A DNA stretch of 40,853 nt from an uncultured Clostridium sp. (GTDB taxonomy: Bacteria > Bacillota > Clostridia > TANB77 > CAG-508), in NCBI GenBank assembly GCA_900555085.1, contig USJU01000001.1:1-40853 (forward strand). Direction: 5' to 3'. The translations under genes and the position numbers were made by a program. The notes under the pieces were generated by a model. The model was given only the letters and a program-made list of their open reading frames with translations. It ran no database searches and had not been told where the DNA came from. This document shows positions 10,511 through 34,492 of the stretch, piece after piece. Within the stretch, counting starts at the first letter, position 1. Every line of letters begins with the position of its first letter.

Positions 10511-10526
10511 CCTTCGGGTTATGAGC
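10511..10526. repeat. attL core (16-bp direct repeat)
   Basis: Identical to 34477-34492. Identity stops immediately on both sides. Confidence 0.75.
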
Positions 10527-10549
10527 GAGGTTTGACCGGTTTTTGTGGT

Positions 10550-10563
10550 TTTGTGAAAATTAG
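10550..10563. repeat. 14-nt repeat TTTGTGAAAATTAG, inverted copy of 34111-34124
   Basis: It is the reverse complement of CTAATTTTCACAAA at 34111-34124, next to a second AAATTTTCAC at 34128-34137. Candidate recombinase or accessory-factor site. Confidence 0.4.
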
Positions 10564-10632
10564 AGTTTTTGTTGGTATTTCAGTATTTACAAAAGTTTTA
10601 ATTTATAGAACATTTGTGTTTTTTTAGGGCAT

Positions 10633-10664
10633 GAGGTATTTATTTTACCCAATTTTTACCCAAT
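10633..10664. repeat. 32-nt arm-type repeat (left copy), internally 2x TTTTACCCAAT
   Basis: GAGGTATTTATTTTACCCAATTTTTACCCAAT is identical to 34331-34362. Both copies lie just inside the element ends. Confidence 0.65.
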
Positions 10665-10751
10665 GGGTATGGTACGTTTGTTCTTAGAACTTTGGCTCTT
10701 GTGGATACTTTTAGAAAATGAAAAATTTTAATTTTTAGGAGGATTTAGATT

Positions 10752-11045
10752 ATGAATAATTTAAGAGAAGTTAATGATGATATTTTGAACGATTGGTTAG
10801 AATTTAGAGAGGAAACTTTTCTTTGCCAACTTTCTGATAAGGATTATAAGTATAGTTTGAATTTTGATAAGTTTTGTGAAAAGATTTTGCGTAATGTTTC
10901 TAAAGATAATAAACAGTTTGTTCAGTCGCAACTTGATAAATTGTATGATGATTTTATGATGTATCTTGATTATTGGAACGAGAAGTATTATAGGAATGGT
11001 TTTTGTGATGGGGTGCAGTTGATTGGTGGTAGTTTTGATAATTAA
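10752..11045 (+). CDS. hypothetical 97-aa acidic protein
   Basis: Strong SD (TAGGAGGA) upstream and a long hairpin terminator downstream. No motif recognised. Confidence 0.6.
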   Translation: MNNLREVNDDILNDWLEFREETFLCQLSDKDYKYSLNFDKFCEKILRNVSKDNKQFVQSQLDKLYDDFMMYLDYWNEKYYRNGFCDGVQLIGGSFDN

Positions 11046-11057
11046 TTAAATATGTTT

Positions 11058-11098
11058 TCCAAAGTTTTTTCAAAATTTTGAAAAACTTTGGATTTTTA
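11058..11098 (+). terminator. intrinsic terminator after the 97-aa ORF
   Basis: TCCAAAGTTTTTTCAAAA / TTTTGAAAAACTTTGGA, a long stem with one bulge, followed by TTTTT. Confidence 0.6.
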
Positions 11099-11201
11099 TA
11101 TACTTTTTTCAAATTTATAAAAATGATCTGTAGATTATCTTGTTAATTGTATAAAAATAAAATAAGAACAGATTTTAAAATTATATTACTTATTGTATAT
11201 C

Positions 11202-11226
11202 AAAAAAGACGAGTTAACTCTCGTCT
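11202..11226 (-). terminator. intrinsic terminator of the HEPN/RT operon
   Basis: The minus strand reads GACGAG-AGTTAA-CTCGTC followed by TTTTTT, immediately after the RT stop codon. Confidence 0.65.
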
Positions 11227-11227
11227 C

Positions 11228-12775
11228 CTATTTTAATATTTTTAATATTATTTCAATAATACCATCTTCAAATTCTTCTAAAATTTCTTTTGAAATTTTT
11301 ACTGATGCTTTTCCATTTTTACTTGGATGTGAAACTGGATTAAAATTTCTTCTATCATAAAATTTTCTTATTAATATCTCCTCTTTATTTCCTATTATAT
11401 TATTTTTATATAATTTATTTATTATCCTTTCAACACTATCTTGATCATTTAGTTTAAATTTTTCTTTACAGATTTCATGAAATAAATTATGAAAATGATT
11501 AAATGCTGAATCTAAATTTCCATTTCTTATATTATAAACATACCATTTTAGCTGATTAATTATAGATTCGTTTATATTTTCTTGCTTTACTATTTCTACA
11601 ATCATTTTATTATACATAGTATTATTTTCACAAAGTATTTTTCTTGAGTATTTCGAATCCTTATTAAACTCATAATTTATTTGATTAAAAATACCTTCAT
11701 TTCCTAATATATTAATAGAAGTGTCATTTTTTATAATTTTCTTTAATATTAAAATATATTTTCCATAATTGTCTTTAAACAATTCTTCTCTATTCTGATT
11801 AATATATAAATCAAATTCACCATAATCATCAAAATCTATACCTTGACTGATCATTAATAAGATAATATGTAATAGCCTTTTATCTTTTAAATCCAGATTA
11901 TTTAGAATATATTCTACTAAAATATCTAAATAAGGATTTGTATTATTATCATTTATAAAAAATAATGCAATTAAAATATTCATTTGACTCACTGTTAATT
12001 CTATATCTAATTGACTTAGTATCTCTCTTATTCTCATTTTTATTTCCGGCTTTTTTAAATAGTTTTTTACACTTTCATCAAAAACTATTTTTAATTTTTC
12101 CTTATCTTTATCTGTAATTTTAAATTCAAAAGTATCTTCATCTGTAAATTTATATTTTTTAACAATTTCTAGCATTTCATCTATTTTCTTTTCTATTTCC
12201 TCATTCTTTGTATTATCTGTATTTGTATTATTTACATTTGAAACCTTCTTAGTATTATTCTCTATAAATTCTTTTCTAACATCTTTATTATGCATTATTG
12301 CATATTCTGTCTTTTTTTCATTTATTCTTAACATTAATTCATTATTCAAAAATAAAGACAATTCTTGTTCCAACTTAGATAATTCTTTAAATATTTCTTT
12401 GTTTGTTAGATTATTTTTATTTCTAAAAATAATCATTGTATCATCTACATATCTAATCATCGCTTTATATTCTAAATCGTATTTATCACAAATATCAATA
12501 ATATTAAAGTCTAATGGTAACAAGTATAATAATCCATACAAATCTGATACACAATTTACTTTTCCTTGAGGGATACCCTGTTTTCTATTCATAAGCGATT
12601 CAAAATAAAATAATAAGGTATCTCTTGCTTTTTCATCAATATCATAGATAGCTAATTTTGACTCCAACCCTAACTCTTTTAATAAATTTATTAATTTTTC
12701 ATGTTTCATGGTATCAAAATAATTACTTATGTCTATTTTTAAAATTATATCTCCTTCTTCTACTATTTCTTCCAT
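11228..12775 (-). CDS. AbiA-like reverse transcriptase, downstream portion: RT motifs A-E, a helical repeat region and a C-terminal HEPN-like motif
   Basis: Motifs: ILKIDISNYFD (motif A), GIPQG (motif B), RYVDDTMII (YxDD, motif C), INEKKT (motif D/E-like). The C-terminus has RRNFNPVSH (Rx4-6H). There is no SD before its ATG. It is in frame with 12824-13234 across a single TGA. Confidence 0.8.
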   Translation of the reverse strand: MEEIVEEGDIILKIDISNYFDTMKHEKLINLLKELGLESKLAIYDIDEKARDTLLFYFESLMNRKQGIPQGKVNCVSDLYGLLYLLPLDFNIIDICDKYDLEYKAMIRYVDDTMIIFRNKNNLTNKEIFKELSKLEQELSLFLNNELMLRINEKKTEYAIMHNKDVRKEFIENNTKKVSNVNNTNTDNTKNEEIEKKIDEMLEIVKKYKFTDEDTFEFKITDKDKEKLKIVFDESVKNYLKKPEIKMRIREILSQLDIELTVSQMNILIALFFINDNNTNPYLDILVEYILNNLDLKDKRLLHIILLMISQGIDFDDYGEFDLYINQNREELFKDNYGKYILILKKIIKNDTSINILGNEGIFNQINYEFNKDSKYSRKILCENNTMYNKMIVEIVKQENINESIINQLKWYVYNIRNGNLDSAFNHFHNLFHEICKEKFKLNDQDSVERIINKLYKNNIIGNKEEILIRKFYDRRNFNPVSHPSKNGKASVKISKEILEEFEDGIIEIILKILK

Positions 12776-12823
12776 TTTATCTGTAAACTTTGTATATTGT
12801 TTAGCATATTCGTTTTGAGATTT

Positions 12824-13234
12824 TCATCCATCATCATTATTAATAAATCTAGTTGGCGAAAAATGAAAAACATTTCTATTCTCAAATTTAACTTTATTTA
12901 AAAAATCATTACACACATCTACAAATAATAACCCCACTGCATTATACAAAATCATAGACATCATTGTAAAAAATTTGTACTCTCTTAATCCATTAACATT
13001 TTTAGGAATAGAAACTGTATCTGCTGAAAATAGATATGGAATAGCATAAAAGATTTCTGACTTTATATATTTTTGATAGTATGCTCTTATATTATTTTCT
13101 GTTATTGATTGAAATGCATTCTTTAATAGCATTAAATTTATATCTGTTATAAATTCTTTTTCCGAATATTTTTTACATATTTTATATGCATTTACAAATA
13201 GTTCTTCTGTTATTACATCTGATATTTTCTTCAT
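12824..13234 (-). CDS. AbiA-like reverse transcriptase, N-terminal portion (fingers, RT motif 1), ending at an in-frame TGA
   Basis: SIPKNVNGLREYKF matches RT motif 1 (IPK..G..R). SD AAGGAG lies upstream of the ATG at 13234. The TGA stop is at 12824-12826, and 16 sense codons link it in frame to the next ORF. Confidence 0.75.
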   Translation of the reverse strand: MKKISDVITEELFVNAYKICKKYSEKEFITDINLMLLKNAFQSITENNIRAYYQKYIKSEIFYAIPYLFSADTVSIPKNVNGLREYKFFTMMSMILYNAVGLLFVDVCNDFLNKVKFENRNVFHFSPTRFINNDDG

Positions 13235-13251
13235 AATTACTCCTTATATTT

Positions 13252-14559
13252 TTAGAATGGTAAATCATCCTCTATCAAAAGCATTTCATCATACTTAAAA
13301 TTATTATACTTTTTTAAGTCTATCTTTTTCCAGTTAATATTGGATTTTTTTATTATATCATTATTGTCATATTCTGATCTACCTCTATTATATATTTGAT
13401 TATTTTTATTAATTTTTTCTATTAAAGTTTCAATTTGCCTTTGTTGCATTCTACTTATATTAGGTCTAATCATTACATCAAAATTTAAATCTGCGTCATC
13501 AAAACATACACTATTTCCAAAGCAATCAATATATTTGTCAAGTAAAAGTATTTCTTTTCCTTCATCTTTTATCTTTTTTTCTAATAACTCTCTTGTATGC
13601 TTATTTATAAAATTGATTGTATTGAGTGTACTAATATGTTCTTCAATATTTTTTGATGTATAGTATGCAATTGTTTTATAATCATTGTTTTTATTAACTA
13701 CTACTTCAGTTGCTATCTTATTATCTTCTTTTAAATAATTGTATACTTCTGGGAAATAATACATAAATTCTACTAAATATATTGCAATTTCTTCATTATC
13801 ACTTATATTATTATATTTATCTTTTTCTTTTTGGATATCTTCTAATATTTTCAATTTATATTCTCGCATTGTCAAAATTAAAAATTCTAAATTAATTTTT
13901 CTATTGATATTGCAATCTTCATTATCTAATTTAAATGTTATCTTCCAGAAATCTCTAAAAATACTAATTATCATATTTTGTGGTATTCTCTCAAAATACT
14001 TTTTTTCTATATATCTTTTAAATTTCTCTTTATCCTCTAAAAAATCTTCCTTTTTACTTGATATATCATCTAATAAATTATTTGTTATTTTCTTTATAAA
14101 TAAAGGTGGCCTTATAAAAATGCCTATTAGCATTTCTTTTATAAGTCCTAGCGTTTTTTCTCTCGATGGTCTTATTAGTTCATTGTTTTGATTTAAAGAA
14201 GGATGCGCTGAAAAATTTCTTACATTTTTTAAATCTTCTATATTGGCTAAAACATATGGTTCTATAATATTAGTTTTATCTTTAATCCTATCAATCAATT
14301 TATTCTCCCATTCTGAACTTTTAGGATTACTTTCTCTAATTTGGTCTATCTCTTTTAATATTTCTTCTGCAACTGAATCTAAATAGTAATCTTTTAATTC
14401 TTCTAATTTAAATAATAAATCTGCAATTACAACAGAATACAACATTACAATTGCTGACCTATAATTTTCGCTATAAAATGAGCGTTCTACTTCTTCAAAA
14501 TATTCTTTAGTTCTTGGGAAATATATTTGTTCCTTCAACTCTGATATGTTTTGTTCCAA
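13252..14559 (-). CDS. HEPN-domain (DUF4145-like) protein with an uncharacterised C-terminal extension of about 280 aa; TTG start
   Basis: The N-terminus reads SENYRSAIVMLYSVVIADLLFKL ... LKNVRNFSAHPS (RNxxxH HEPN motif). SD AGGAGG lies 7 nt before TTG at 14559. Its stop is 17 nt before the RT start. Confidence 0.7.
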   Translation of the reverse strand: MEQNISELKEQIYFPRTKEYFEEVERSFYSENYRSAIVMLYSVVIADLLFKLEELKDYYLDSVAEEILKEIDQIRESNPKSSEWENKLIDRIKDKTNIIEPYVLANIEDLKNVRNFSAHPSLNQNNELIRPSREKTLGLIKEMLIGIFIRPPLFIKKITNNLLDDISSKKEDFLEDKEKFKRYIEKKYFERIPQNMIISIFRDFWKITFKLDNEDCNINRKINLEFLILTMREYKLKILEDIQKEKDKYNNISDNEEIAIYLVEFMYYFPEVYNYLKEDNKIATEVVVNKNNDYKTIAYYTSKNIEEHISTLNTINFINKHTRELLEKKIKDEGKEILLLDKYIDCFGNSVCFDDADLNFDVMIRPNISRMQQRQIETLIEKINKNNQIYNRGRSEYDNNDIIKKSNINWKKIDLKKYNNFKYDEMLLIEDDLPF

Positions 14560-14621
14560 TTTTCTTCCTCCTAATATATTTTTATATTATTTTTTCATTC
14601 TATATTTCATTTCTTATATAT

Positions 14622-15560
14622 TTACCTTTTCAAATAATATTTCATTATTTCAGCATATTGATCCTGTGCATTTAAACAGGTATCAATTAAATATCCTTTT
14701 TCTCCACCATTTTGATATTCTTTTAATCCTCTATAATAGAACAATTTATCCTTATCTAATATAATAAAAGGAATTATATTATTTTTTAAACACTCTTTAA
14801 AAATAATTATTCTACCCACTCTACCATTTCCATCTTGAAATGGATGTATCTTTTCGAATCTTGCATGAAATTCTATTATTTCTTTTATTGTTATTTTGGA
14901 TAAAGAGTTGTACCAATCCATTAATTTTGTCATATCCCTTTGAACATATTTAGGCGATGTAGTTTTTGTGCTTCCTGCTTCATTAACAACTTGTTTATAA
15001 TCACCAACTTTAAACCATTCTTTTCTACTATCTGCAGTTCCTTCTTTTAATAATCTATGAAATTCTTTTATCATATCTTCTGTCAAATTTTCTTCCGCTT
15101 TATCTAACATGTAATCCACTAGCTTAAAATGATTAGCCATTTCTAATATATCATCAACACTTGCAATTGTTTCTCCTTCAAATAAAATTGTATTTGTTTC
15201 AAATATATATCTCGTTTGATCTTCTGTTAATTTGCTACCTTCAATGTGGTTTGTATTATATGCAAATATAATTTGTGTATTATGATATAAATTACCTTTT
15301 AATTTCATTTCTTTTTGTTCTCTTAGTATATTTAATACATTAATTTTAGATATATCAAATCTATCTTGCTCATCATTCAATAATTCATCAACAGAAACTT
15401 CAAATATTTCAGCTAACTTTTTTAATGATTCGATATTAGGCTCTAATGTACCTGATTCATATTTTGATACGGTTGCAGATTTCACTCCCAATATATCTGC
15501 AATCTCATTTTGAGTCATATTTTTACTTTCTCTATATGATTTTATTTTTTCTCTTAACAT
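14622..15560 (-). CDS. XRE-family HTH fused to a Fic/DOC domain protein
   Basis: The N-terminal HTH reads MTQNEIADILGVKSATVSKYESG. The C-terminal Fic motif is HPFQDGNGRVGR (HxFx[DE]GNGRxxR). Confidence 0.9.
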   Translation of the reverse strand: MLREKIKSYRESKNMTQNEIADILGVKSATVSKYESGTLEPNIESLKKLAEIFEVSVDELLNDEQDRFDISKINVLNILREQKEMKLKGNLYHNTQIIFAYNTNHIEGSKLTEDQTRYIFETNTILFEGETIASVDDILEMANHFKLVDYMLDKAEENLTEDMIKEFHRLLKEGTADSRKEWFKVGDYKQVVNEAGSTKTTSPKYVQRDMTKLMDWYNSLSKITIKEIIEFHARFEKIHPFQDGNGRVGRIIIFKECLKNNIIPFIILDKDKLFYYRGLKEYQNGGEKGYLIDTCLNAQDQYAEIMKYYLKR

Positions 15561-15604
15561 AAAAAACTCTCCTTTTTTATTATAGTATTATTATATCATA
15601 TTAT

Positions 15605-15658
15605 TTCCAAAAAAGAAAGATATTCTTAGTGATTGTTTAAATAATATCTTTTTTGGAA
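15605..15658. promoter_or_regulatory. long inverted repeat upstream of the HTH-Fic gene (terminator of the upstream operon and/or operator)
   Basis: TTCCAAAAAAGA(aag)ATATT ... AATATCTTTTTTGGAA gives stems of 12 + 5 bp. A TATAAT lies just downstream on the minus strand. Confidence 0.45.
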
Positions 15659-15690
15659 TACTGATAATTTATTTCCATACATTATTGTTT

Positions 15691-16992: not shown

Positions 16993-17025
16993 ACTTTCCT
17001 AGCGAAAGCGCATACTCATATAGTT

Positions 17026-17370: not shown

Positions 17371-17389
17371 TAAACTCCCTCCTATTTTA

Positions 17390-18217: not shown

Positions 18218-18292
18218 AAAATTCTCCTTATTAAAAAAAAGCAAAATAATTATGTAATATATCATTACTCACTTACTTTGCTTTTCTTTTGT

Positions 18293-19186
18293 CTATTTTT
18301 TATTTACTTTTAAAGACTGCTTGATCAATGGAATTACATTATCAATATCATCCTTCTTATCTATTATGATACAATAATCTCCATTTCCCCAATGACCAAT
18401 TCCACTAATGTCTTTTGTAAGTTTTAGAGGATCATTTAGGGAATCTTTTTTCATATTAATGTATATTTTTAATTTATTCTTATGAAATTCTATATCTGCG
18501 ATATTTCTAATTCCTTTGAATGCTATGTATAGTTTCTTTGCTTCCACATCTATATCGTCTAATTCTAATATTCTATTTTTTAATTCTTCATATACTCTTT
18601 TTATATTGTCCGAAACTTTAGATAAATGATCTTCCTCAGTATATACAATTATTTCTTTATTAACATCGTTTTGTATAGATTCCATTTGAATATCTTGCAC
18701 TTTAACATTGCTTGTCTTTTTTATAAAATCAATTTCGGTAATATCATCTTCATATCTGGTTAGTTTAACTAAATCTACTGGTATATTTTTGAAGTCTGTA
18801 GCATTTAATTGATATGCTGTATAAATTGGTGCAACAAATATAATTCTTGATTGGCTCCAATCTATATCTTGAGTAGTTAGCGATGACTTAGTTTTTATGT
18901 TGTATTGAAGAACAAAATCTGCTTTTCTCTCTAGCATCAATTTTAAATATGTATAACCCTGGTCAACTAAAGAATGATTTTTAACATTTTTATATTCAAT
19001 TATTCTAAATGATTTAGATTCTTCATCAAAAGCTAAAGAATCAATTCTAAAATCGCCTACTACAAATTCTGTATCTATAAATTTATATCCTAATATTGTT
19101 TCAATGTTGTTTTCGAAAAAATTTTGTAATTCTTTTTCATTTTTAAAATCCTTTTGTTTTAATTCTTTATTTGCTTTTAAAATCAT
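18293..19186 (-). CDS. PD-(D/E)xK nuclease-like protein (NucS/DUF91-like N-terminus) with a DUF5655-like C-terminal domain
   Basis: GDFRIDSLAFDEESKSFRIIEYKNVKNHSLVDQGYTYL fits the D...ExK...Q..Y pattern. SD AAGGAG upstream. Confidence 0.55.
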   Translation of the reverse strand: MILKANKELKQKDFKNEKELQNFFENNIETILGYKFIDTEFVVGDFRIDSLAFDEESKSFRIIEYKNVKNHSLVDQGYTYLKLMLERKADFVLQYNIKTKSSLTTQDIDWSQSRIIFVAPIYTAYQLNATDFKNIPVDLVKLTRYEDDITEIDFIKKTSNVKVQDIQMESIQNDVNKEIIVYTEEDHLSKVSDNIKRVYEELKNRILELDDIDVEAKKLYIAFKGIRNIADIEFHKNKLKIYINMKKDSLNDPLKLTKDISGIGHWGNGDYCIIIDKKDDIDNVIPLIKQSLKVNKK

Positions 19187-19208
19187 ATAATTTCTCCTTC
19201 AAATTAAA

Positions 19209-19766
19209 TTATTCCTTTTCTCCTTCACTAGACTTTTGTCCTGTTAATTGGCAATATCTCTTCGTTGCCTCTTCATCCTTAGCTAGATTTGCCATAGTTA
19301 ACACATAATTAACATTCGTTTGTGAATCTATTGGTACTTTAGATTCAATCGCTTTTCTCACCAATAAAGTTAATGGTTCACCTATAGCTTGTTTATAGTT
19401 AAATCCTATAAGTTGCATAATTGTAAGTGTCTCAACAGACAATATTTTTTTCATTTTTTCAATTTCAACTTGATCCGGAAGAAATTCTCCAAATATAGGC
19501 AATAAATTATCTGTAATATATTTTATATCATTTTCTGTAATTTTTTGTGAAACTAATTCTTGTTCATATGCTTGAGCAATTCGTTGAATTTCAGCCTTAT
19601 CATTTAATAAATCAGATATTATTTCTTCCAGTTCAGCAATAGTTTCTTTGTCATTTCTTTTTGCTTTACTAGCATTTATTTTCTTTGATATAAAACTTGC
19701 GCCATTTCTAGCAGTTGCTTCAGCTAAATTTGCTGCTAATTGTGCAACAATTTGATTATCATCCAT
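19209..19766 (-). CDS. hypothetical 185-aa helical protein
   Basis: SD GAGGAG upstream. It starts 20 nt after the hsdR stop. No motif recognised. Confidence 0.55.
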   Translation of the reverse strand: MDDNQIVAQLAANLAEATARNGASFISKKINASKAKRNDKETIAELEEIISDLLNDKAEIQRIAQAYEQELVSQKITENDIKYITDNLLPIFGEFLPDQVEIEKMKKILSVETLTIMQLIGFNYKQAIGEPLTLLVRKAIESKVPIDSQTNVNYVLTMANLAKDEEATKRYCQLTGQKSSEGEKE

Positions 19767-19786
19767 TTTTAATTTCTCTCCTCTAT

Positions 19787-22813: not shown

Positions 22814-22823
22814 AATTTGCCCC

Positions 22824-23459: not shown

Positions 23460-23495
23460 ATTATCATCTCCTTATACAAATCACCATTTGTCTGA

Positions 23496-26154: not shown

Positions 26155-26243
26155 TTTTGCACCTCAAATATTTATAATAATTCTATTATATTTTATATCA
26201 CAAAACGACAAATTTCTCAACAGGTACTTCTAAATATTTACAA

Positions 26244-26867
26244 TTAATTCCTATGAAAAAAATGATCATATATATAGCCTGCCTCTATATACTTTTCTGT
26301 CAATTTCATTTTCTTCTTTTCTAATAGTTCTAGATATTTTTGTTTAAACACATTTTTACAAATCCATTTTACACCTTCTTTTGAAATTACAATTTTATTA
26401 TTTATTAAAAATTTGTATTCTTCTAATTCACTATCACACATTCTTTTAATGGCTTTTCTTATAGTAATTTCTTCTCTATTAAAATATTTGCATAGTTGTT
26501 TTATATCCATATCTTCATTCCACCAATTTTCTTCATGCTCTATTTTTAATAATTCTTCATATTGTTTTATTCTATCTTCAAAAAATTCTACATCAGCATC
26601 AATTAATGATTTTTCTTTATTAAAATACACTTGTAACAACCATGCATATCCTTCATCTAAAATAAAATATTTTCTATTTTTTACTTTCTCACTTCTCCAT
26701 CTGCAAGTTGGATGCTTTTTTAACATTACATTTACAGCTTTTCTTAAATCTCCATGTGTTATTTCTTTTCCACATTTAGTAGTAACACCCAACAATTTAA
26801 TTCTCTTTAAAATTTTATTATAAGATACAAAAATACTCTCTAAAGCTTGCTCTGAATCTCTGTACAC
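26244..26867 (-). CDS. hypothetical 207-aa protein (GTG start) with two similar internal segments
   Basis: SD AAGGAAG lies 9 nt before the GTG. The repeated-looking segments are KYFILDEGYAWLLQVYF and IVISKEGVKWICKNVF. Function unknown. Confidence 0.5.
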   Translation of the reverse strand: MYRDSEQALESIFVSYNKILKRIKLLGVTTKCGKEITHGDLRKAVNVMLKKHPTCRWRSEKVKNRKYFILDEGYAWLLQVYFNKEKSLIDADVEFFEDRIKQYEELLKIEHEENWWNEDMDIKQLCKYFNREEITIRKAIKRMCDSELEEYKFLINNKIVISKEGVKWICKNVFKQKYLELLEKKKMKLTEKYIEAGYIYDHFFHRN

Positions 26868-26897
26868 TTTTCATCACTTCCTTACTATAAAAATCTA

Positions 26898-27045
26898 TTA
26901 ATGCTAGTTTACAAAGCATTAATAACAAGCAAAATTTATTTTGCTCGAATATAGGTAGTATTTTTTAGTACCTAATATTCGCCAGCGTGGTGTTTTGACA
27001 CCATTTTTGCTGTTTAGGGAAAAATCCCTAAAACCATTTTTGGCT
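26898..27045. other. array of consecutive hairpins in a locally GC-richer intergenic region (candidate ori, ssi or small RNA)
   Basis: Hairpins: TTAATGCT/AGCATTAA (26898-26922), AGCAAAAT/ATTTTGCT (26928-26945), GAATATAGGTA/TACCTAATATTC (26947-26980), GGTGT/ACACC (26989-27002), TTTAGGGA/TCCCTAAA (27013-27032). There is also the direct repeat ACCATTTTTG (27000-27009 and 27033-27042). Confidence 0.4.
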
Positions 27046-27182
27046 CTCCGAGGGAATTTTTTTATTCATTTTTTCATAATTTTTGTTTAAATTTTAGAAA
27101 AAGTCTGAACAAAAAATTCAAACTTTTCCTATTTACAATTGTTATAATTTATATTATAATTTTATTAGGTTTTAAGATTGAG

Positions 27183-28037
27183 TTAGCAAATAGTTTGGTC
27201 GCTTATGCTAACTTTTTCTTTTGCTTTTATTTCTTCTGCAATTGAAATTCCATAACACATTTCATTCAGAACTTCAACAATTTCTTCTGAAATTTCTGTA
27301 TCATCTTCAGTAGATAATTGTTCAATTAATTGCTCTTTATTATATCTTGTTGTAATAACAATTGGTAATTCATTATCATATCTATTACTAATAATTTTAT
27401 TTAATTTTTCTAAAGCCCATTTGCTTAAATTTTCACTACCAAAATCATCAATAATTAACATATCTACATTAGAATATAGTCTAATAATTTGCGTTTCTGA
27501 TAGTCCATCTTTATTAAACGATTCTTTAATTTTATCAATTATAGAGCTACTTTTTTCCATTAATACAATTTTGTTTTGTTCAATCATTTTATTAGCTATA
27601 CAAGCTGCTAAATATGTTTTTTCATAGCCTATATTTCCATAAATAATCAGTCCATTTTTCATCTCTGATTCAATACATAAATCTGTAAATTTTATTAGTT
27701 GATTTATAATAGATGTATCATCATATGTATCAATAAGATTTTCAAAATTATACTTTTGTAATCTTTTTTTCATATAGTTATCTTTATAAATACTATTTAT
27801 AATTTTTCTATACTTTTCTTGTCGCTGTTTTTCTTCTTGTTCAAAATCAAATTTTTTCCAAAATTGAATTGCTTTTTCACAATTACATCTTTCATATTCA
27901 ATCATACTTTTATCATAATTTACATATAAATAATCGAATCCAATTGGCTTTAAATTTTTATTACAAAATCCACATTTTGCACCTTCATTGGTGATAACTT
28001 TATAATTTGAATTCTTTAAATCCACTTCTATTCTCAT
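27183..28037 (-). CDS. DnaC/IstB-like AAA+ helicase-loader homologue with an N-terminal Cys-cluster
   Basis: Walker A-like GNIGYEKT and Walker B MLIIDDFG. N-terminal CGFC...CNC. It follows a replisome-organiser gene. Confidence 0.7.
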   Translation of the reverse strand: MRIEVDLKNSNYKVITNEGAKCGFCNKNLKPIGFDYLYVNYDKSMIEYERCNCEKAIQFWKKFDFEQEEKQRQEKYRKIINSIYKDNYMKKRLQKYNFENLIDTYDDTSIINQLIKFTDLCIESEMKNGLIIYGNIGYEKTYLAACIANKMIEQNKIVLMEKSSSIIDKIKESFNKDGLSETQIIRLYSNVDMLIIDDFGSENLSKWALEKLNKIISNRYDNELPIVITTRYNKEQLIEQLSTEDDTEISEEIVEVLNEMCYGISIAEEIKAKEKVSISDQTIC

Positions 28038-28509
28038 CTCCTTCTTTTTCTATTTTATTTCTAATCTTTTTCTCTTCTTTAGTGTTACGTTGCGTTACTG
28101 TAACGTTACTTTTTTCTTTTTCACTTTTCATTTTTTCACGATATTTTTGTTGCCTTAAACAATTTTGTAGTCTAATTTCTTCAAGTTTATCAGCACTTTG
28201 ATACTTAGACCAGTTTTTGATTTTATAAAAATTATCTTCTATAATAATCATTTTTAATTCTTCAAACTTTTCCAAACATTTTGTGATTTTTTTCTTAGAC
28301 TTTCCCATAATCTTCGAAAATTCCTCAACTGTCATTGGCTTATCTTCTGTTATTGATAATCTACCTTGATAATTACATTTCATTGCTATTGTTAAAAGTT
28401 GTATCCATACTCTAATTAGTGTATCTCCATCTCTTTCACTTTCTAGCAATTTTATTTTGTTATTATCAAAAAAATCCGTAGATAGTTTTAACCATTGTAA
28501 ATTAGTCAT
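28000..28509 (-). CDS. phage-type replisome organiser (N-terminal domain family)
   Basis: MTNLQWLKLSTDFFDNNKIKLLESERDGDTLIRVWIQLLTIA matches my recollection of the phage replisome organiser N-terminal domain. It is followed by a DnaC-like gene. Confidence 0.65.
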   Translation of the reverse strand: MTNLQWLKLSTDFFDNNKIKLLESERDGDTLIRVWIQLLTIAMKCNYQGRLSITEDKPMTVEEFSKIMGKSKKKITKCLEKFEELKMIIIEDNFYKIKNWSKYQSADKLEEIRLQNCLRQQKYREKMKSEKEKSNVTVTQRNTKEEKKIRNKIEKEGDENRSGFKEFKL

Positions 28510-28537
28510 ATCCTCCTTTCCTCACTTTCTTTAGAAT

Positions 28538-28735
28538 CTAATCTATCGATTCTTGTTCCATTTTTGTTAAATATTCATCTAAAGCTTGTACTCTAAATAA
28601 ATATTTTCCACCAACTTTTGAACATGGTATTTGTTTTCTTCTTACTAATTGATTTATCAACCAGTATGATATTCCTAAATACTCAGATGCCTCTTTCATT
28701 GTTAATGTTGTCCTTTGTACTTTTTGTAGTTCCAT
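28538..28735 (-). CDS. excisionase-family / MerR-like HTH DNA-binding protein (65 aa)
   Basis: LTMKEASEYLGISYWLINQLVRRKQIPCSKVGGKYLFRVQALDEYL is typical of the Xis/AlpA-type HTH. Confidence 0.75.
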   Translation of the reverse strand: MELQKVQRTTLTMKEASEYLGISYWLINQLVRRKQIPCSKVGGKYLFRVQALDEYLTKMEQESID

Positions 28736-28767
28736 AATATCACCTCCTGTCTTTTTTGTAATTTAAT

Positions 28768-28797
28768 ATTGACTTTTGTTAACAAATGTATTATATT
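28768..28797 (+). promoter_or_regulatory. sigma-A-type promoter for the 347-aa ORF, overlapped by the palindrome TTTGTTAACAAA
   Basis: TTGACT (28768-28773), a 15-18 nt spacer containing TTTGTTAACAAA (28775-28786), then TATTAT/TATATT. Confidence 0.5.
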
Positions 28798-28885
28798 GAT
28801 TATAGTTAACTTTGTAAATACTTTTTAGGTTATTTTGATAGCAGGTTAACTTTATTAAATTTCATAAACTGTTAACGGAGGAATT

Positions 28886-29929
28886 ATGAACAAATTAAAA
28901 ATTGATGAACCTATTAGTATATTTGTTTCAAAGAACGAAACACTTACACATAAAGCATTTTTATATGCAAAAACAAAATCATCTAAGCCAAAATATTATA
29001 ATCTAAAAAACATTAATACAGGTTATTTTACTATTAATACTACAACTACCACTCAGACACTTTGTACTGAACTTATTAACTTTTTAAATTGTAATTTTGA
29101 TAATTATGATGATTGTTTTATGTGGTTTACTAAGTTTTTTACTTCATACATCATATATACTGGTGAAGATGATATAAATAAATTTGAAGTAAATAAACTT
29201 TATTCTTTTAATAAAGTAAAAGAATTATTTGAAAAATATTTTGAAGAAATAAAAAATGACTCAAAACGTGGTCAAAAACTATTATCAGAATTTGTTGATT
29301 ATATATTTAACATTAATAATATTGAAGAAATTAAAGATTTTACTTCTAAAATAAGATTTTATATTTATTATAACTCTCATGCTAAAAAGCTAGATAGATT
29401 TATAAATAACTACTTTTCTATGCCACAAGGCTTTTCTTTTAGAACAATATCTGGTATTAAAGGATCCACAGAAAAAGATTTAATCAAATTCTTTAATTCT
29501 GCTCCAGATTATGATGTTGAACCAGATTATAGTTCTAGTAATGACAATATTTATGGAATTTTATATGTTACATTGTTTCAATTTGTACTTAATAATAAAT
29601 ATCTTATAAAAAAATGTAAGAATTGTGGTAAATACTTTATAATAGATAATGCACGCATTAATTACTGTAATAATTTATACAAAGGAAAACAAACTTGTAG
29701 AGATATCGGAAACCAAATTGCTCAAAGAATTAAACAAGAAAATGAGATTGTTTATGGTAAATATCGTAAGATTTATGCAAAAAAAGCAATGCTAGTAAAG
29801 CGTAATCCTGATATAGAAGTTTATAAGATTGATTATGAAAATTGGAAAAAAGAAGCTAAAGAATTTATGGATGCCATTAGATCTAATGAGAAAACTTATA
29901 AAGAATTTGATAAGTGGTTAGATAAATAG
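28886..29929 (+). CDS. hypothetical protein with a C-terminal Cys-cluster (CKNCGKYF...YC...CRD), resembling proteins seen in Firmicutes mobile elements
   Basis: 347-aa ORF with SD GGAGG upstream. A putative zinc-ribbon is followed by a basic helical tail. The family assignment (DUF6076-like) is from memory only. Confidence 0.5.
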   Translation: MNKLKIDEPISIFVSKNETLTHKAFLYAKTKSSKPKYYNLKNINTGYFTINTTTTTQTLCTELINFLNCNFDNYDDCFMWFTKFFTSYIIYTGEDDINKFEVNKLYSFNKVKELFEKYFEEIKNDSKRGQKLLSEFVDYIFNINNIEEIKDFTSKIRFYIYYNSHAKKLDRFINNYFSMPQGFSFRTISGIKGSTEKDLIKFFNSAPDYDVEPDYSSSNDNIYGILYVTLFQFVLNNKYLIKKCKNCGKYFIIDNARINYCNNLYKGKQTCRDIGNQIAQRIKQENEIVYGKYRKIYAKKAMLVKRNPDIEVYKIDYENWKKEAKEFMDAIRSNEKTYKEFDKWLDK

Positions 29930-29950
29930 TAATGATGTTGAATCATTACT
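29928..29950. terminator. bidirectional hairpin between convergent genes
   Basis: AGTAATGAT-GTTGA-ATCATTACT, a perfect 9-bp stem. Confidence 0.55.
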
Positions 29951-29952
29951 AT

Positions 29953-31656
29953 TTATCTATTACCAAAATTAATTCCAAATAAAGTGTCTTCTTGTGAAAT
30001 TCTTTGTGCTTCTTCATATTTTTTTAATACAGCTTTATTTAATTCATTTTTAACTATTTGATCATCATTAACACAGCATATATATTGAAATCTATTATTT
30101 CCTATGATTTCATTTGTTAAATTTAGAAATTTCGCTACATATTGTTTATCTGTCGATTCAAATACTACACTATCATGTATTAAAAATATTGGAAATCTAT
30201 CACTATTAAAGTCTGCTAATACTAAGTCATATACTGCAATACAACCTTTTAAATATCCACTGCTTAATTTTCTAGGTATTTCCCAATCATAATTATATCC
30301 TCTTGTAGCATAATTTCCTGTATTTTTACATTCCATAATAAGTTTAGCATCTTCATCAAAGATTTTTCTTATATATTCTTTAAACTTATTATTTATAATC
30401 TTAAAATTATTACAATTATCATTTTTTTCTAACTTTTTTATTATTGATTTTACTTTCTCTTTACAACTAGTGTCTATTTGATTTAATGCTATGTATACAT
30501 CTAATTGTTTTTCTAAATCACTTTTCTCAATTTTTAAATTAGTTATGATCTCATTTGTACTATAATAGTCATCTAAATATCCTTTTTTATCAAATTCTTT
30601 TAAAATATTTATTTTCTTTAAATTTATATCATCAATTTTTGATTCTATTTCTTTTACTTTATTTTGATCACTTTCTATTAAACTTTTTACTCTTTCATTT
30701 CTATCTTTGTTTAATTTAATATGATATTTCTGAATTTCTTCTAATGTTTTCATTTCACCATTTGTAACAAAAAATTTAGATTCTTCCAAGATCTCTCTTA
30801 TTTGTTCAATACCTAAAAGACTTTCATTGTTTATAATCTTTTTATTAGACTCTATGTAGTTTTGATAAATATATTTTTCTTTAATTAGATTTGATAATTC
30901 TGCATTTATTTTATGAATATCATTTATATTCTCTTTTTCGTTTAATGTCAGTTCAAATTTTTTAAGCTTTTCTTCATTTTCTTTTATCTCTTTATCTAAG
31001 TTTCTAATTTTACTTTTTAATGTATTTTGTTTTTCTTTTTTCCATATAATATCAGTCTCTTTTATTTCTTTTAACTTTAAGAATGACTCTCTTTCTTCAA
31101 TTAGAGCTTTTAATTCTATGATAGGTTCTATTGGTATATTCATAAGAAAAGAGTTTTTTAATTGAGTTACTATATTAGTTTCCATAGCATGTGTTTTATA
31201 TATATTATTAAATGCAAACGCCCCTCTCTTCATAAATGGTGAAATTAAATTTCTAAATGATACCTCTTCATTTTCAATTCCAAATATTAATTTGTTTAAT
31301 TTATTTTTTACCCAATCAATGGTTTTAGGTTCATCTTCTAAGACACCATCACCTAATAGATTTTCTTTATCTATAATTTTGATTTTAGTAACATTTTGAG
31401 GGGTCCTTGATAAAGTAATAGTCTTATTTTCAATTACTAAGTCAACACTAAATTCTTCTTTATTTAAGTCTTCGTATGTAGATATTTTTTCCGTACTTGA
31501 TCCAAAACAAAAATTTATTATTTGAATTAAACTAGTTTTACCAGTTCCATTATTGCTTTTTCCGTTAACAGACTCTGATACAAGAAAATTAAATCCTTCG
31601 CTAAACTCAATTGTTTTAAACGTTTTTAATGTTCGACTATATATCTTTTTAATCAA
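29953..31656 (-). CDS. ABC-3C system ABC ATPase (DUF2326/YydD-like, SMC-type with a coiled-coil insert)
   Basis: Walker A NNGTGKTS, signature-like LSSGYLKG and Walker B IFLIHDS. A long K/E/N-rich coiled-coil lies between them. It overlaps the upstream gene by 8 nt. Confidence 0.8.
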   Translation of the reverse strand: MIKKIYSRTLKTFKTIEFSEGFNFLVSESVNGKSNNGTGKTSLIQIINFCFGSSTEKISTYEDLNKEEFSVDLVIENKTITLSRTPQNVTKIKIIDKENLLGDGVLEDEPKTIDWVKNKLNKLIFGIENEEVSFRNLISPFMKRGAFAFNNIYKTHAMETNIVTQLKNSFLMNIPIEPIIELKALIEERESFLKLKEIKETDIIWKKEKQNTLKSKIRNLDKEIKENEEKLKKFELTLNEKENINDIHKINAELSNLIKEKYIYQNYIESNKKIINNESLLGIEQIREILEESKFFVTNGEMKTLEEIQKYHIKLNKDRNERVKSLIESDQNKVKEIESKIDDINLKKINILKEFDKKGYLDDYYSTNEIITNLKIEKSDLEKQLDVYIALNQIDTSCKEKVKSIIKKLEKNDNCNNFKIINNKFKEYIRKIFDEDAKLIMECKNTGNYATRGYNYDWEIPRKLSSGYLKGCIAVYDLVLADFNSDRFPIFLIHDSVVFESTDKQYVAKFLNLTNEIIGNNRFQYICCVNDDQIVKNELNKAVLKKYEEAQRISQEDTLFGINFGNR

Positions 31657-31858
31657 TCCTTATCACCCACTCATCATTTATTTCAACTTTATTTATTGCA
31701 TATAGGAACGCTAAAATAGCATCCATATCTTTAGTTTTTATATTAGTATTTTTATACAAATCTTCTACTTTTATTTTTCCATTTATTGAATTTAGCACAT
31801 CAATACTATATTTCAATAATGATTTTTCAAAAGGAACATCTTTATTTGGTAATATCAT
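31649..31858 (-). CDS. ABC-3C system middle component (69 aa)
   Basis: A small ORF translationally coupled on both sides: ATGA overlap with the HNH gene and an 8-nt overlap with the ATPase gene. Size and position match the middle component of the published ABC-3C architecture. Confidence 0.6.
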   Translation of the reverse strand: MILPNKDVPFEKSLLKYSIDVLNSINGKIKVEDLYKNTNIKTKDMDAILAFLYAINKVEINDEWVIRID

Positions 31859-32592
31859 ACTTCAAACACATCACATTCTTCAAAATAATTACATATAATA
31901 ATCCCTGCTGGGAAAACATTAGAAAAATCATTTCCTACAACTCTTCTAATTAAATTGGTAAACTTTTGTACATTACTGATATCTTTGCATTGCTCTAGTC
32001 TATATAAACTTATAATATTATGCCTTAAATCTGTTCTTTCACTTTGAGACAATGTTTCTAAAAATTCTTTAAAAATTGGTATATATCTAATATACATGTT
32101 AATTTGATCTTTTATTTCGATTAAAGTATTCTTATTTATTTTTTCTTCCACTTTTATACTATAATATTTTTCTATTATGCTTGTATGATTACATTTTTCA
32201 CTTAAATCTTTACAAATTTTTGAGAATTTGTTATATAAATCTGGATTTGCATATTCTCTGGCAATTTTAATATTATTCTCATATTCTTTTTTTATTTCCT
32301 GTAACATTTCAGTTGTGTATTTTTCACTATATTTATCTATTTTAGTATGGCAAGTTGGACATAGTAATAAAATATTAGATTCATCATTTAATTCATCTAT
32401 AGATTTATTAGGATTATATCTTTTAGTTGCTTTTTGGAGATCTTCAATATGTGCAAATTCTCCAATAAATCCCTCTTCTTCATAATATCCTATTTTTTGC
32501 TTACACATACAGCAATTTCCATCGCTTTTCATCCATGACAATTTCCTTTTAACTATTACACTTACATCAATTCTTTTTCCCAATATTATCAC
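31855..32592 (-). CDS. ABC-3C system effector: N-terminal HNH endonuclease plus a C-terminal helical coupling domain
   Basis: CCMCKQK...GEFAHIEDL...SNILLLCPTCHTKID fits the CxxC / H / N / CxxCH HNH pattern. The ORF-track start is GTG. An alternative ATG is at 32532. Confidence 0.75.
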   Translation of the reverse strand: MIILGKRIDVSVIVKRKLSWMKSDGNCCMCKQKIGYYEEEGFIGEFAHIEDLQKATKRYNPNKSIDELNDESNILLLCPTCHTKIDKYSEKYTTEMLQEIKKEYENNIKIAREYANPDLYNKFSKICKDLSEKCNHTSIIEKYYSIKVEEKINKNTLIEIKDQINMYIRYIPIFKEFLETLSQSERTDLRHNIISLYRLEQCKDISNVQKFTNLIRRVVGNDFSNVFPAGIIICNYFEECDVFEV

Positions 32593-32805
32593 CTTAACTT
32601 TTTATAATTCATCATAAAATCTCATTTTAATACGTATAAATCAAGTATTATACTATTTTTTTATTCACTTTACTAATTTTGTCGTATTATATCATATTTT
32701 CTGTAAATAATCCAGTATTTTCAAAGGATTTTAGCCTTCAAATTTTCGACATTTTTTTACATTTTATTACATTTATAAATTTTTTAAGTTTATTTTTGAA
32801 ATCTA

Positions 32806-32834
32806 TTGCAATTTGTTAACTATTGTTGTATAAT
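32806..32834 (+). promoter_or_regulatory. sigma-A-type promoter of the integrase gene with GTTAAC in the spacer
   Basis: TTGCAA (32806-32811), a 17-nt spacer containing TTGTTAAC, then TATAAT (32829-32834). A second TTGTTAAC lies at 32839-32846. Confidence 0.6.
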
Positions 32835-32903
32835 ATCTTTGTTAACTAATATATAAATACTCCTCCCACCCATAGGCATACTTAAAAGGAGGTGAAATAA
32901 GTA

Positions 32904-34097
32904 ATGGCTGGGAGCATAGAAAAAAGAGGAAAAAACAGTTACAGACTAACACTATCCGAAGGATTTGACCTAAATGGAAAACCTATGATACATAGGAAAA
33001 CGGTACACGGAACTAAAAAAGATGCAGAAGTTGAACTAGCAAAATTTGTTACTGAAGTACAAAATGGTTTAGTAATTGATGGTAAATCTCTTAAATTTTC
33101 TGAATTTACTGAAATATGGAAAAGAGATTATGGTTCAAAAGAACTTGCTCCATCAACATATAAAAGATATTGTAGAATGTTAGAAACAAGACTTTTACCA
33201 TACTTTGGACATTTTTATATTAACAAAATCAAACCAACTGACATTATGAAATTCTATGACTTACTTGAAAATGATACTCAGTTAGTTAGGAAAAAAGGTA
33301 ACAATGGTTCAAAAACAAAAAAGCCCTTATCTGGTAAAACAATTTTAGAGCATCACAGATTATTAAGAGCAATGCTTCATAAAGCAGTTTATTGGCAATT
33401 AATAGTGGCGAATCCTGCTGAACGTGTTCAACCACCTAAAGCTAGAAAACCAAAAAGAAGATCTTATGATGATGAGCAAACTAAAATATTACTAGAAAAT
33501 TTAGAACTATTATCTAGCGAAGATACTAAATACAAAGTTGCAATCATCCTTACAGTATTTACTGGTGTTCGTTTAGGCGAGTTAATGGGACTAGAATGGC
33601 AAGATGTTGATTTAAAAAAAGGTATTATCAGTATTAATCGTTCTAGTCAGTACCTGGCAGATATGGGAGTCTTCACAAAAGTTCCAAAAACAGAAAGTTC
33701 CATTAGAGAAATTGCAATACCTGAATTTATCATTTCTTTACTTGAGGAATATAAGTTATGGTATGAAGAACAAAAATCGATTTACGGCGAATTATGGACT
33801 AATTCTGATAGGTTATTTGTACAGGCGGATGGCAAACCAATGCACCCTTCTACAATTAGCAAATGGTTTGTTAAATATGTTGGTCAAATAGGATTACCTG
33901 TAATTAATTTTCACGGATTAAGACATACAAATGCAAGTTTACTAGTTGCACAAAATATTGATATAGCAGTAATTTCTGCGAGACTAGGTCATGCACAAAT
34001 AAGTACTACACTTGACTTTTATGTGCATCCACTACTTTCTCATAATAGAAAAGCTGGCTATGCACTAGAAAACTTATTATTACCAACAAGGTCTTAA
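32904..34097 (+). CDS. int: tyrosine-type site-specific recombinase / integrase
   Basis: 397 aa with an N-terminal SAM-like domain. Catalytic residues are in context: GVRLGEL (R), HGLRHTNAS (HxxR), LGHAQISTTLDFYVH (H...Y). Confidence 0.93.
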   Translation: MAGSIEKRGKNSYRLTLSEGFDLNGKPMIHRKTVHGTKKDAEVELAKFVTEVQNGLVIDGKSLKFSEFTEIWKRDYGSKELAPSTYKRYCRMLETRLLPYFGHFYINKIKPTDIMKFYDLLENDTQLVRKKGNNGSKTKKPLSGKTILEHHRLLRAMLHKAVYWQLIVANPAERVQPPKARKPKRRSYDDEQTKILLENLELLSSEDTKYKVAIILTVFTGVRLGELMGLEWQDVDLKKGIISINRSSQYLADMGVFTKVPKTESSIREIAIPEFIISLLEEYKLWYEEQKSIYGELWTNSDRLFVQADGKPMHPSTISKWFVKYVGQIGLPVINFHGLRHTNASLLVAQNIDIAVISARLGHAQISTTLDFYVHPLLSHNRKAGYALENLLLPTRS

Positions 34098-34330
34098 TTT
34101 GAACTTTTTTCTAATTTTCACAAATTACAAATTTTCACGATGTAAAAAGGTAAAAAACTTTGAGATTATATATCTCTTTCCCAAAAGTTTTTTACTATAA
34201 ATTTAAAAATTTTATTGCAATTTACATTATTAAATTATGTTAAAATTTAAAATATTTATTTATAACATTGTAATGTAAGTATAAAATTTTAATGAATTTT
34301 TATTGATATTTATGGCATTTGAGGTATTTA

Positions 34331-34362
34331 TTTTACCCAATTTTTACCCAATTTGACATAAC
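34331..34362. repeat. 32-nt arm-type repeat (right copy)
   Basis: Identical to 10633-10664. Confidence 0.65.
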
Positions 34363-34446
34363 AATGCAATCTTTGAGCATTATTGTAACCAATTTTTAGT
34401 CAATAAAAAATCACTAAAACCGTTACAGTTCTAGTGATATATTCTT

Positions 34447-34492
34447 TGGTTGCGGGGGTAAGACTCTAACTTACGACCTTCGGGTTATGAGC
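34447..34492 (-). pseudogene. orphan 3' half of a tRNA-Met(CAT)-like sequence (anticodon loop to CCA) containing the attR core
   Basis: The minus strand reads GCTCATAA-CCCGA-AGGTC-GTAAG-TTAGAGT-CTTAC-CCCCGCA-A-CCA. No matching acceptor 5' strand or D-arm lies upstream. The T-loop has A where the conserved C56 is expected. Confidence 0.6.
34477..34492. repeat. attR core (16-bp direct repeat)
   Basis: Identical to 10511-10526. Confidence 0.75.

Follow-up and report, generated by a model that had tools for sequence, protein, structure and literature searches.

The window, as we call the whole stretch of DNA analysed, is 40,853 nt long and represents contig C1 of a 1.24-Mb, 127-contig metagenome-assembled genome (MAG; handle G000) of an uncultured Clostridium sp. 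Our subject is a 23,982-bp segment of it that lies between uvrC and glmS. We judge it an evenly balanced proposition that this segment belongs, as a single copy, to a large family of helper-dependent defence islands that resemble integrative and mobilizable elements (IMEs). The family is very common in uncultured gut Clostridia and yet undescribed; it ranks among the commonest mobile elements of these poorly studied bacteria and as a main vehicle for anti-phage systems there.

As originally predicted, the segment is bounded by a perfect 16-bp direct repeat, CCTTCGGGTTATGAGC. Its two copies, one at each end of the element, are the only ones in all 127 contigs, and the chance expectation in the window is 0. 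No third copy was present in the window when up to 3 mismatches were allowed, and an older element bounded by a degenerate core near uvrC or glmS was therefore rejected. Homology to relatives begins and ends precisely at the cores (G102, G142, G197 and the other relatives aligned). The segment was evidently inserted by a tyrosine integrase, through conservative site-specific recombination at this 15- to 16-bp core.

The predicted attachment-site (att) geometry, with P and P' arm sites inside attL and attR, is supported by co-variation of the two arms within each relative. The arm repeat foreseen at both ends is real and measures 33 nt (TGAGGTATTTATTTTACCCAATTTTTACCCAAT, containing two TTTTACCCAAT units), but the 32-nt right-hand copy had been placed about 10 nt off, at 34331-34362; position 34331 is where the first TTTTACCCAAT unit of that copy begins. 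In alignments of both ends of seven elements the CCCAA-N6-CCCAA units hold a fixed position, and the bases that flank them vary between elements while being identical on both arms within each element (TTTTACCCAATTTTTACCCAAT in the window element, CCCCAACTTTTCCCCAA in G065 and ATCCCCAATTTCTCCCCAA in G025). The 14-nt motif CTAATTTTCACAAA was found exactly where it had been predicted, at 34111-34124 (+) and inverted at 10550-10563. As a bare match this motif is marginally non-random (two matches in 1 of 100 shuffles), and it gains weight from its co-variation at the two ends in diverged relatives, since ATTTTCACAAA stands on both arms of the window element and ATTTCACTAA on both arms of G065. Such concerted change is as expected for protein-binding sites. 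Because the two ends co-vary, the arm repeats and the 14-nt motif appear to be functional sites, and they would be expected to be read by each element's own Int and Xis.

Proteins of the window were annotated with Pfam, PHROGs and PADLOC, and tRNA genes were sought with ARAGORN. The scans identified the integrase (Int), the Xis-like helix-turn-helix (HTH) protein and the replisome organiser/DnaC-like pair named in the original prediction, and its description of the content as defence-island-like was borne out by PADLOC defence matches across the cargo. It had also recognised no capsid, terminase, relaxase or type IV secretion system (T4SS) genes, and among the window proteins none of these families, nor portal or lysis families, gave a match in Pfam or PHROGs. 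Nucleotide comparison with seven relatives (G102, G142, G063, G066, G138, G165 and G197) revealed that segments 10510-11120, ~26150-29930 and 32840-34492 are kept and that cargo is swapped in two places, from ORF97 to ORF207 and from DUF6076 to int. The conserved backbone, as delimited by these alignments, comprises ORF97; ORF207, the DnaC-like loader, the replisome organiser and Xis, divergent from DUF6076; and Int, whose gene lies 380 bp from the attR core.

Relatives of this Int were confirmed at 224 loci in contigs representing one genome per species. The best 80 of the 224 are 82-98% identical, and all belong to uncultured gut Clostridia, from human, mouse, rabbit, goat and chicken; hosts of the relatives include Clostridium sp. 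CAG:273, Clostridium sp. CAG:343 and Candidatus Scatovivens. Within the taxonomic family of the window's host, an Int relative occurs in 65 of 151 genomes and 34 of 50 genera. Int proteins 93-98% identical to that of the window occur in other genera, compared with a nucleotide identity of 76-85% for uvrC there and in most congeners, which shows recent horizontal transfer. Core pairs on the same contig give element sizes of 12.8-25.2 kb. For a census of the backbone we used the 48 loci with at least 7 kb of sequence upstream of int: the DnaC-like loader, replisome organiser and Xis were present in 47, DUF6076 in 46 and ORF207 in 33.

At 13 of these 48 loci a 326-aa MobA/VirD2 relaxase (PF03432, E = 9e-39) follows the DnaC-like loader and replaces ORF207. 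The Int proteins of the relaxase-bearing sisters are 82-97% identical to that of the window (97% in L102). Firmicute IMEs are known to use a replisome organiser together with DnaC as a maintenance module (PMC5704250), and an IME that neighbours the sister element in G196 has the same DUF6076/Xis switch, along with MobC and a relaxase. It is because of the relaxase in the ORF207 slot, this module and the shared switch that the family appears IME-like. The original prediction had proposed a helper-dependent element, satellite- or IME-like. Helper dependence stands, as the element has no transfer or packaging genes of its own, and of the two alternatives the relaxase-bearing sisters favour the IME.

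ORF207 has 1935 homologues, all of them unnamed. It gave no Pfam or PHROG match, and a profile search against PDB sequences returned E values of at least 0.004 (best 2lvs_A). With its AlphaFold (AF2) model (predicted local distance difference test, pLDDT, 90; predicted template modelling score, pTM, 0.85), Foldseek returned winged-helix matches at E of at least 0.1, namely TraN of pIP501, Tn916 Xis and MarR-type regulators. The hairpin-rich region upstream of the gene, 26868-27182, is 78-99% identical in 35 relatives, all of which are ORF207-type; it matches no known oriT region and has no similarity to the intergenic regions of the G196 IME. Among 50,697 phage and 72,556 plasmid records there are essentially no relatives of ORF207 or DUF6076, and the same phage records contain essentially none of ORF97. 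We infer that ORF207 and the hairpin spacer form a candidate mobilisation (or origin) module, with a candidate oriT or replication origin.

These observations can be combined into a model. After excision by Int and Xis, the circle would replicate by means of the replisome organiser, the DnaC-like loader and the host helicase. Transfer would be carried out by a helper, and conjugative mobilisation is the most likely route, since the ORF207 slot is occupied by a relaxase in sisters; ORF207 and the hairpin region would act as a cis-acting and accessory mobilisation module for a relaxase and T4SS supplied in trans. The DUF6076 protein would set the switch by binding GTTAAC boxes at the xis/rep and int promoters. 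For a new switch regulator and a relaxase-independent mobilisation module, the natural candidates are ORF97, ORF207 and DUF6076.

The proposed role of DUF6076 was assessed from the distribution of these boxes. GTTAAC occurs at 11 sites in the window, six of which lie in two promoters (four in the 150-bp xis/DUF6076 region and two upstream of int), and its background density is 0.29 per kb. In 55 relatives examined, three or four boxes precede xis in 33 and two precede int in 23. In ORF207-type elements, four boxes go with DUF6076 alleles at least 52% identical to that of the window and none with alleles that are ~30% identical; the boxes do not track the Xis, replisome-organiser or DnaC alleles. 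A search of the literature found no paper on DUF6076. These data point to the Cys-rich DUF6076 protein as a candidate operator-binding switch regulator.

The reverse complement of 34432-34492, GCTCATAACCCGAAGGTCGTAAGTTAGAGTCTTACCCCCGCAACCA, is the 3' half of a tRNA-fMet, from anticodon loop to CCA, and lies inside the element beside int. The core corresponds to the anticodon loop, the 3' stem and the first variable-loop bases. ARAGORN found no tRNA gene in the window, and the sequences outside both cores are non-tRNA; the tRNA-fMet gene of the host, on contig C79, has CTCATAACCCAAAGG, 1 mismatch from the core (the A-variant stem). Among 61 relatives the element-borne half retains T-stem pairing in 55, with five compensatory stem variants, and the T-loop TTCGAGT in 57, and it appears to be under selection. 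The T-loop of the window copy, TTAGAGT, is unique among the copies, a change consistent with location outside a tRNA gene. Because attP carries the remaining tRNA 3' half, the initiator tRNA gene is evidently the primary target of the family. The window element instead entered a pre-existing copy of the 15-mer in accessory DNA between uvrC and glmS.

The window is not exceptional in this respect. An exact core lies downstream of int in 61 relatives; 14 of these junctions are in a complete tRNA-fMet gene (ARAGORN) and 47 (77%) are not, and in these 47 the sequence right after the 15-mer is unrelated and mutually different. The displaced tRNA 3' half is found at the distal junctions of G063 and G065 and is missing from those of G000, G102, G142, G066, G195, G196, G197 and G200. 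In G195, a closed HiFi chromosome, the two cores of the element are the only exact copies, and the genuine tRNA-fMet gene, with an A-variant stem like that of the window's host, is 106 kb away; the corresponding site of the element-free relative G226 has neither the core nor the immediate flanks. The attB copies of the 15-mer cannot be random, since base composition predicts a chance occurrence of only ~3e-4 per genome. Use of an exact tRNA-fMet core mostly outside tRNA genes is the most unusual feature of the element and is shared by the family as a whole. The same integrase acting in a tRNA gene and at bare 15-nt core copies provides a natural experiment on att-site choice.

What lies next to the non-tRNA cores is mostly accessory DNA. 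At 28 of 36 such loci the flank ORF nearest the core has no homologue in the window's genome. The flank of G195 holds a truncated replisome-organiser gene, those of G142 and L112 hold distantly related integrases, and ends of ORF97-type sister elements were found at four loci. In G196 an 11.7-kb IME (L049 11757-21189 plus L144 1-2900) abuts the Int-proximal core of the sister element. It encodes a KAP NTPase, DUF6076, Xis, a 641-aa protein, NikA/MobC, a MobA/VirD2 relaxase and its own integrase, 27% identical. The only candidate for a direct repeat bounding this IME was one 14-mer, which encloses gatAB and was judged a chance match. As a separate observation, the left end of the IME resembles the right flank of the window (GAGAAATG..TTT, then the core).

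Accretion onto older, decayed elements, a pattern reviewed for IMEs (PMC5704250), is the most economical explanation of the non-tRNA sites, but the outer att site that it predicts is missing both in the window and in G195. A core-bounded tandem array was rejected as a general explanation, because in G000 and in G195 the two cores of the element are the only exact copies; it is true of a few loci, with an ORF97 gene in the flank of four and a distal tRNA 3' half in G063. Another possibility, which we put forward tentatively and think rather less probable than not, is that the 15-nt core is a portable landing pad on mobile or accessory DNA and that elements of this family, and of several others sharing it, mostly stack on each other into defence-island arrays at a distance from the tRNA gene. 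If this were true, especially of hosts with an A-variant tRNA-fMet, the 77% of copies outside tRNA genes would represent the normal lifestyle of these elements and not decay.

Multiple cores were also seen in two other assemblies. Clostridium sp. CAG:343 (G199) has two A-variant cores, CTCATAACCCAAAGG, at C42:129346 and 139203, 9.9 kb apart and 4.6 kb away from a G-variant family element; some elements may be adapted to the A-variant tRNA-fMet. In G084 three cores of the same orientation (C20:122, 12567 and 22428) are spaced 12.4 and 9.9 kb apart, and no integrase of this family was found at E <= 1e-40; other element families using this core appear to be arrayed there in tandem.

The original prediction had looked to related genomes for an empty uvrC-glmS site with one core copy. 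No such site exists among the 60 relatives and all 26 congeners searched: uvrC abuts the glmS leader in congeners, and from the uvrC 5' end to the glmS ribozyme leader there are 90-1300 bp in more than 20 of them. Neither the core nor the sequences immediately flanking the element occur in these element-free spacers, and for this reason attB is placed in earlier-acquired accessory DNA and not in the ancestral chromosome. The PH-domain gene whose remnant forms the left flank is absent from the spacer of other congeners. A homologue in G044 sits directly beside a tRNA-fMet with an element-type 3' half, inside an int-less element remnant that keeps the DUF6076 C-terminus. The 129-aa gene of the right flank is likewise absent from the spacers of other congeners and has homologues scattered across other families of the order. 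In G025 this flank is replaced by a methyltransferase gene, an ASCH gene and a 157-aa ORF, and in G020 glmS is separated from the core by 8 kb of type I restriction-modification (R-M), ASCH and methyltransferase genes.

G025 is the closest relative (flanks 97% identical) and has a 16.6-kb element at exactly the same site, with an Int that is 69% identical, different arm sequences and different cargo. Its two cores are not the same: attL reads CCTTCGGGTTATGAG (CCTTC) and attR CCTTAGGGTTATGAG (CCTTA). It follows from this C/A difference that attB held a tRNA-like core before integration and that the crossover took place to the right of position 5, within GGGTTATGAG (anticodon loop). Duplication of the core from the donor, with no homology required at attB, is rejected by the same difference. 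The one attB has been used by two to three different elements across the window genome, G025 and G020.

The cargo also differs between relatives. The ABC-3C slot holds other genes in G102, G142, G197 and L102, and G197, which shares hsdR and hsdM at 94-96% identity, differs in both cargo slots. Taken together, the alignments show two slots that evidently exchange defence cargo between relatives. The target-recognition region of hsdS (23573-24143) is unlike that of G197 despite the identity of hsdM and hsdR, and the specificity subunit has been exchanged inside a shared R-M operon. The AbiA-like reverse transcriptase (RT) gene has an in-frame TGA at 12824-12826, where the intact orthologue in G102 (84% identical, 668 aa) has Trp. 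A two-gene design was rejected on account of this orthologue, and the TGA is either a nonsense mutation or an error of sequencing.

Several observations weigh against an IME-like island mobilised by a conjugative helper. There is no relaxase in the window copy, and neither of two relaxase types tested occurs in the host assembly. Coupling-protein-type genes (PF02534) are found in all 26 genomes of the genus, but no complete conjugative system was found in the host, and its own PF02534 genes stand in chromosomal context (the conserved one) or are fragmented (a second one, on contig C60). The structural matches of ORF207 are all non-significant; the hairpin region is not similar to its counterpart in relaxase-type relatives, whose GTTAAC boxes do not track the DUF6076 allele cleanly; and the model does not account for the non-tRNA attB. 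The phage-type replication module, a replisome organiser and DnaC-like loader with PHROG matches, also fits a phage satellite like P4 or the phage-inducible chromosomal islands (PICIs), which would excise and replicate on infection by a helper, be packaged via cos or pac and pay with defence cargo. Such a satellite would account for the missing relaxase, for int, xis, a divergent candidate master regulator, a sub-phage size and hotspot defence cargo as in P4 and PICIs, and HK97-type prophages are available in 7 of the 26 congeners. We nevertheless consider a satellite unlikely. Pfam and PHROGs gave no terS, capsid-remodelling or other packaging match, though a cos or pac site may be present; ORF207, ORF97 and DUF6076 are essentially without relatives in the phage records; HK97-type capsid genes never share a contig with the core in the genus, and the host assembly has none; 24 kb, at the upper edge of size, exceeds typical Gram-positive PICIs; and a conjugative relaxase is found within the same backbone in sister elements.

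The alternation of the ORF207 slot with a relaxase also speaks against an island that excises and replicates with no dedicated transfer, moving by transformation, generalised transduction or vesicles and integrating with its own Int, so that ORF207 and the hairpins would serve replication or regulation. No gene could be given a transfer function with Pfam, PHROGs or Foldseek, and the hairpins and direct repeats beside the replication genes could be an origin with iterons; on the other hand, efficient transfer is implied by the near-identity of backbones across many genera and across human, mouse, rabbit, goat and chicken hosts, and we regard this explanation, too, as improbable. The original prediction had also allowed for a decaying prophage left with genes for integration, replication and defence. 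The genes for the integrase, Xis, replisome organiser and DnaC-like loader are indeed all phage-type, but the same backbone without structural genes occurs at more than 200 loci, 12.8-25 kb long, with intact genes and Int up to 98% identical, no capsid, tail, lysis or terminase remnants were found in Pfam or PHROGs, and sister elements have a relaxase. Decay can hardly be sustained as an explanation. It is harder still to believe that there is no discrete mobile unit and that the repeats are incidental or the contig chimeric at the repeat. The genome is a MAG in 127 contigs, but a 15- to 16-nt repeat is too short for an assembly mis-join, dozens of independent assemblies, as well as a closed HiFi chromosome, have the same type of junction, and homology to relatives would not then start and stop exactly at the cores.

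Compared to the Firmicute IMEs (Tn6104 and streptococcal IMEs; Guedon et al. 2017, PMC5704250), the family has in common its own recombinase and att sites, a replisome organiser and DnaC that maintain the excised element, the absence of a T4SS, frequent accretion in tandem with decayed elements and, here in sister elements, a MobA/VirD2 relaxase. It differs in that the window copy and 33 of 48 relatives have ORF207 in place of a relaxase, and in that the cargo of this element consists almost wholly of defence genes. Moreover, the IMEs listed there are examples with serine recombinases that target genes within ICEs (integrative and conjugative elements), whereas this family uses a tyrosine integrase and the anticodon loop of tRNA-fMet. 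With the Staphylococcus aureus pathogenicity islands (SaPIs), other PICIs and P4-like satellites it shares int-xis with a divergent regulator, an autonomous replication module, sub-phage size and defined slots that exchange anti-phage systems; unlike them, the element has no terS, ppi, cpm, sid or psu-type packaging or capsid-redirecting genes, no pri-rep-type primase-helicase and no link to phage records, and its relatives carry relaxases. As in tRNA-targeting islands (P4-type integrase, with an attP that restores the tRNA 3' end), the crossover falls in a symmetric tRNA loop, and there are arm-type Int sites and a functional-looking tRNA 3' half with compensatory T-stem changes, but 77% of the family's junctions, both window junctions included, have no tRNA beyond the 15-nt core. 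The accretion model for cis-mobilizable elements (CIMEs; ICESt1/ICESt3) is matched by flanks made of accessory DNA and remnants of other elements and in that different elements of sister species reuse one att site; neither this locus nor the closed genome G195, however, has the outer att site by which a CIME is delimited.

Table 1. Features of the element and its flanks, in window coordinates.
Feature	Position	Strand	Basis or remark
Left flank (outside element): PH-domain gene remnant, 210-bp internal deletion	10253-10432	-	Intact (129 aa, PF08000) in G025
attL core (Int-distal junction), CCTTCGGGTTATGAGC	10511-10526	+	Exact repeat
Inverted copy of 14-nt motif (P' arm, 24 nt off core)	10550-10563	-	Sequence match; co-varies with Int-side copy in G065
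P' arm repeat, 33 nt, TGAGGTATTTATTTTACCCAATTTTTACCCAAT, two TTTTACCCAAT units	10632-10664	+	Repeat; CCCAA units invariant in seven relatives
ORF97, conserved distal-end backbone gene	10752-11045	+	No Pfam or PHROG match; same position in G102, G142, G063, G066, G197
Cargo slot 1: AbiA-like RT with one in-frame TGA	11228-13234	-	PADLOC AbiA/DRT, RVT_1
PD-T7-3	13252-14559	-	PADLOC E = 3.7e-127
HTH_3-Fic protein (PDC-S04/SoFic-like)	14622-15560	-	Pfam, PADLOC
Three cargo genes, 433, 114 and 291 aa	15691-18265	-	Sole family match phrog_6058, on 114-aa protein
DUF5655 protein (PDC-S18)	18293-19186	-	Pfam, PADLOC
Type I R-M operon and 185-aa ORF	19209-26154	-	Pfam
hsdR	19787-22813	-	Type I R-M operon
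211-aa insert in R-M operon	22824-23459	-	Between hsdS and hsdR
hsdS	23496-24719	-	Type I R-M operon
hsdM	24652-26154	-	Type I R-M operon
ORF207, backbone gene; predicted helical/winged-helix DNA binder	26244-26867	-	In 33/48 relatives
Hairpin-rich non-coding region, 315 bp	26868-27182		Conserved in ORF207-type relatives
DnaC/IstB-like helicase loader	27183-28037	-	Pfam, PHROGs
Phage-type replisome organiser (Phage_rep_org_N)	28000-28509	-	PF09681 E = 1.7e-29; phrog_4880
Xis-like HTH_17 protein	28538-28735	-	Pfam, PHROGs
Divergent promoter region, four GTTAAC boxes	28736-28885		Motif count
DUF6076 Cys-rich protein, candidate switch regulator	28886-29929	+	PF19553; divergent from xis/rep genes
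Cargo slot 2: ABC-3C system (DUF2326 ATPase, MC7, HNH) = PDC-M68	29953-32592	-	Pfam, PADLOC
Two GTTAAC boxes, int promoter	32815-32846		Motif count
Tyrosine integrase (Int)	32904-34097	+	PF00589 and PF14659 (SAM-like domain)
P-arm motif copies, CTAATTTTCACAAA then CAAATTTTCACGAT	34111-34141	+	Motif search
P arm repeat, TGAGGTATTTATTTTACCCAATTTTTACCCAAT	34320-34352	+	Repeat; first TTTTACCCAAT unit begins 34331
Element-borne tRNA-fMet 3' half (variable loop, T-arm, acceptor, CCA)	34432-34476	-	T-loop mutated, TTAGAGT
attR core (Int-proximal junction), CCTTCGGGTTATGAGC	34477-34492	+	Exact repeat
Right flank (outside element): 129-aa accessory gene	34497-34886	-	No Pfam match

Outside the element, a few further observations were made. 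The conserved PF02534 gene of the host (G000 C23:12372-13895) is a TraG/VirD4-type homologue (~270 bits) kept in 24 of 26 congeners; it has a housekeeping context, near polC, murF-like and dnaJ-like genes, and looks like an orphan or domesticated type IV coupling protein. The uvrC frame extends upstream of its first ATG (10152) through 10153-10215 (-) to a GGAGGTG ribosome-binding site and there encodes a conserved N-terminus (..IFIIEDELKKLPGKPGVYIMHD), with no ATG, GTG or TTG in the extension; G014 has an ATG at the equivalent position. Probably uvrC starts here at ATA or ATT, or else lacks ~20 residues of its GIY-YIG domain. A glmS ribozyme lies upstream of glmS at 35248-35400 (Rfam, 83 bits) and is apparently deleted in G025 (L015 ~19380-19450), where the promoter region directly meets the glmS ribosome-binding site. 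Finally, 34960-35100 (-) encodes the C-terminal part of a small membrane-anchored protein (..GIITLGAIGGGCYLGYRKIRGKIN*) but lacks a start codon, and a similar stretch occurs 0.8 kb from another core in G007 (C5:409319-409391).

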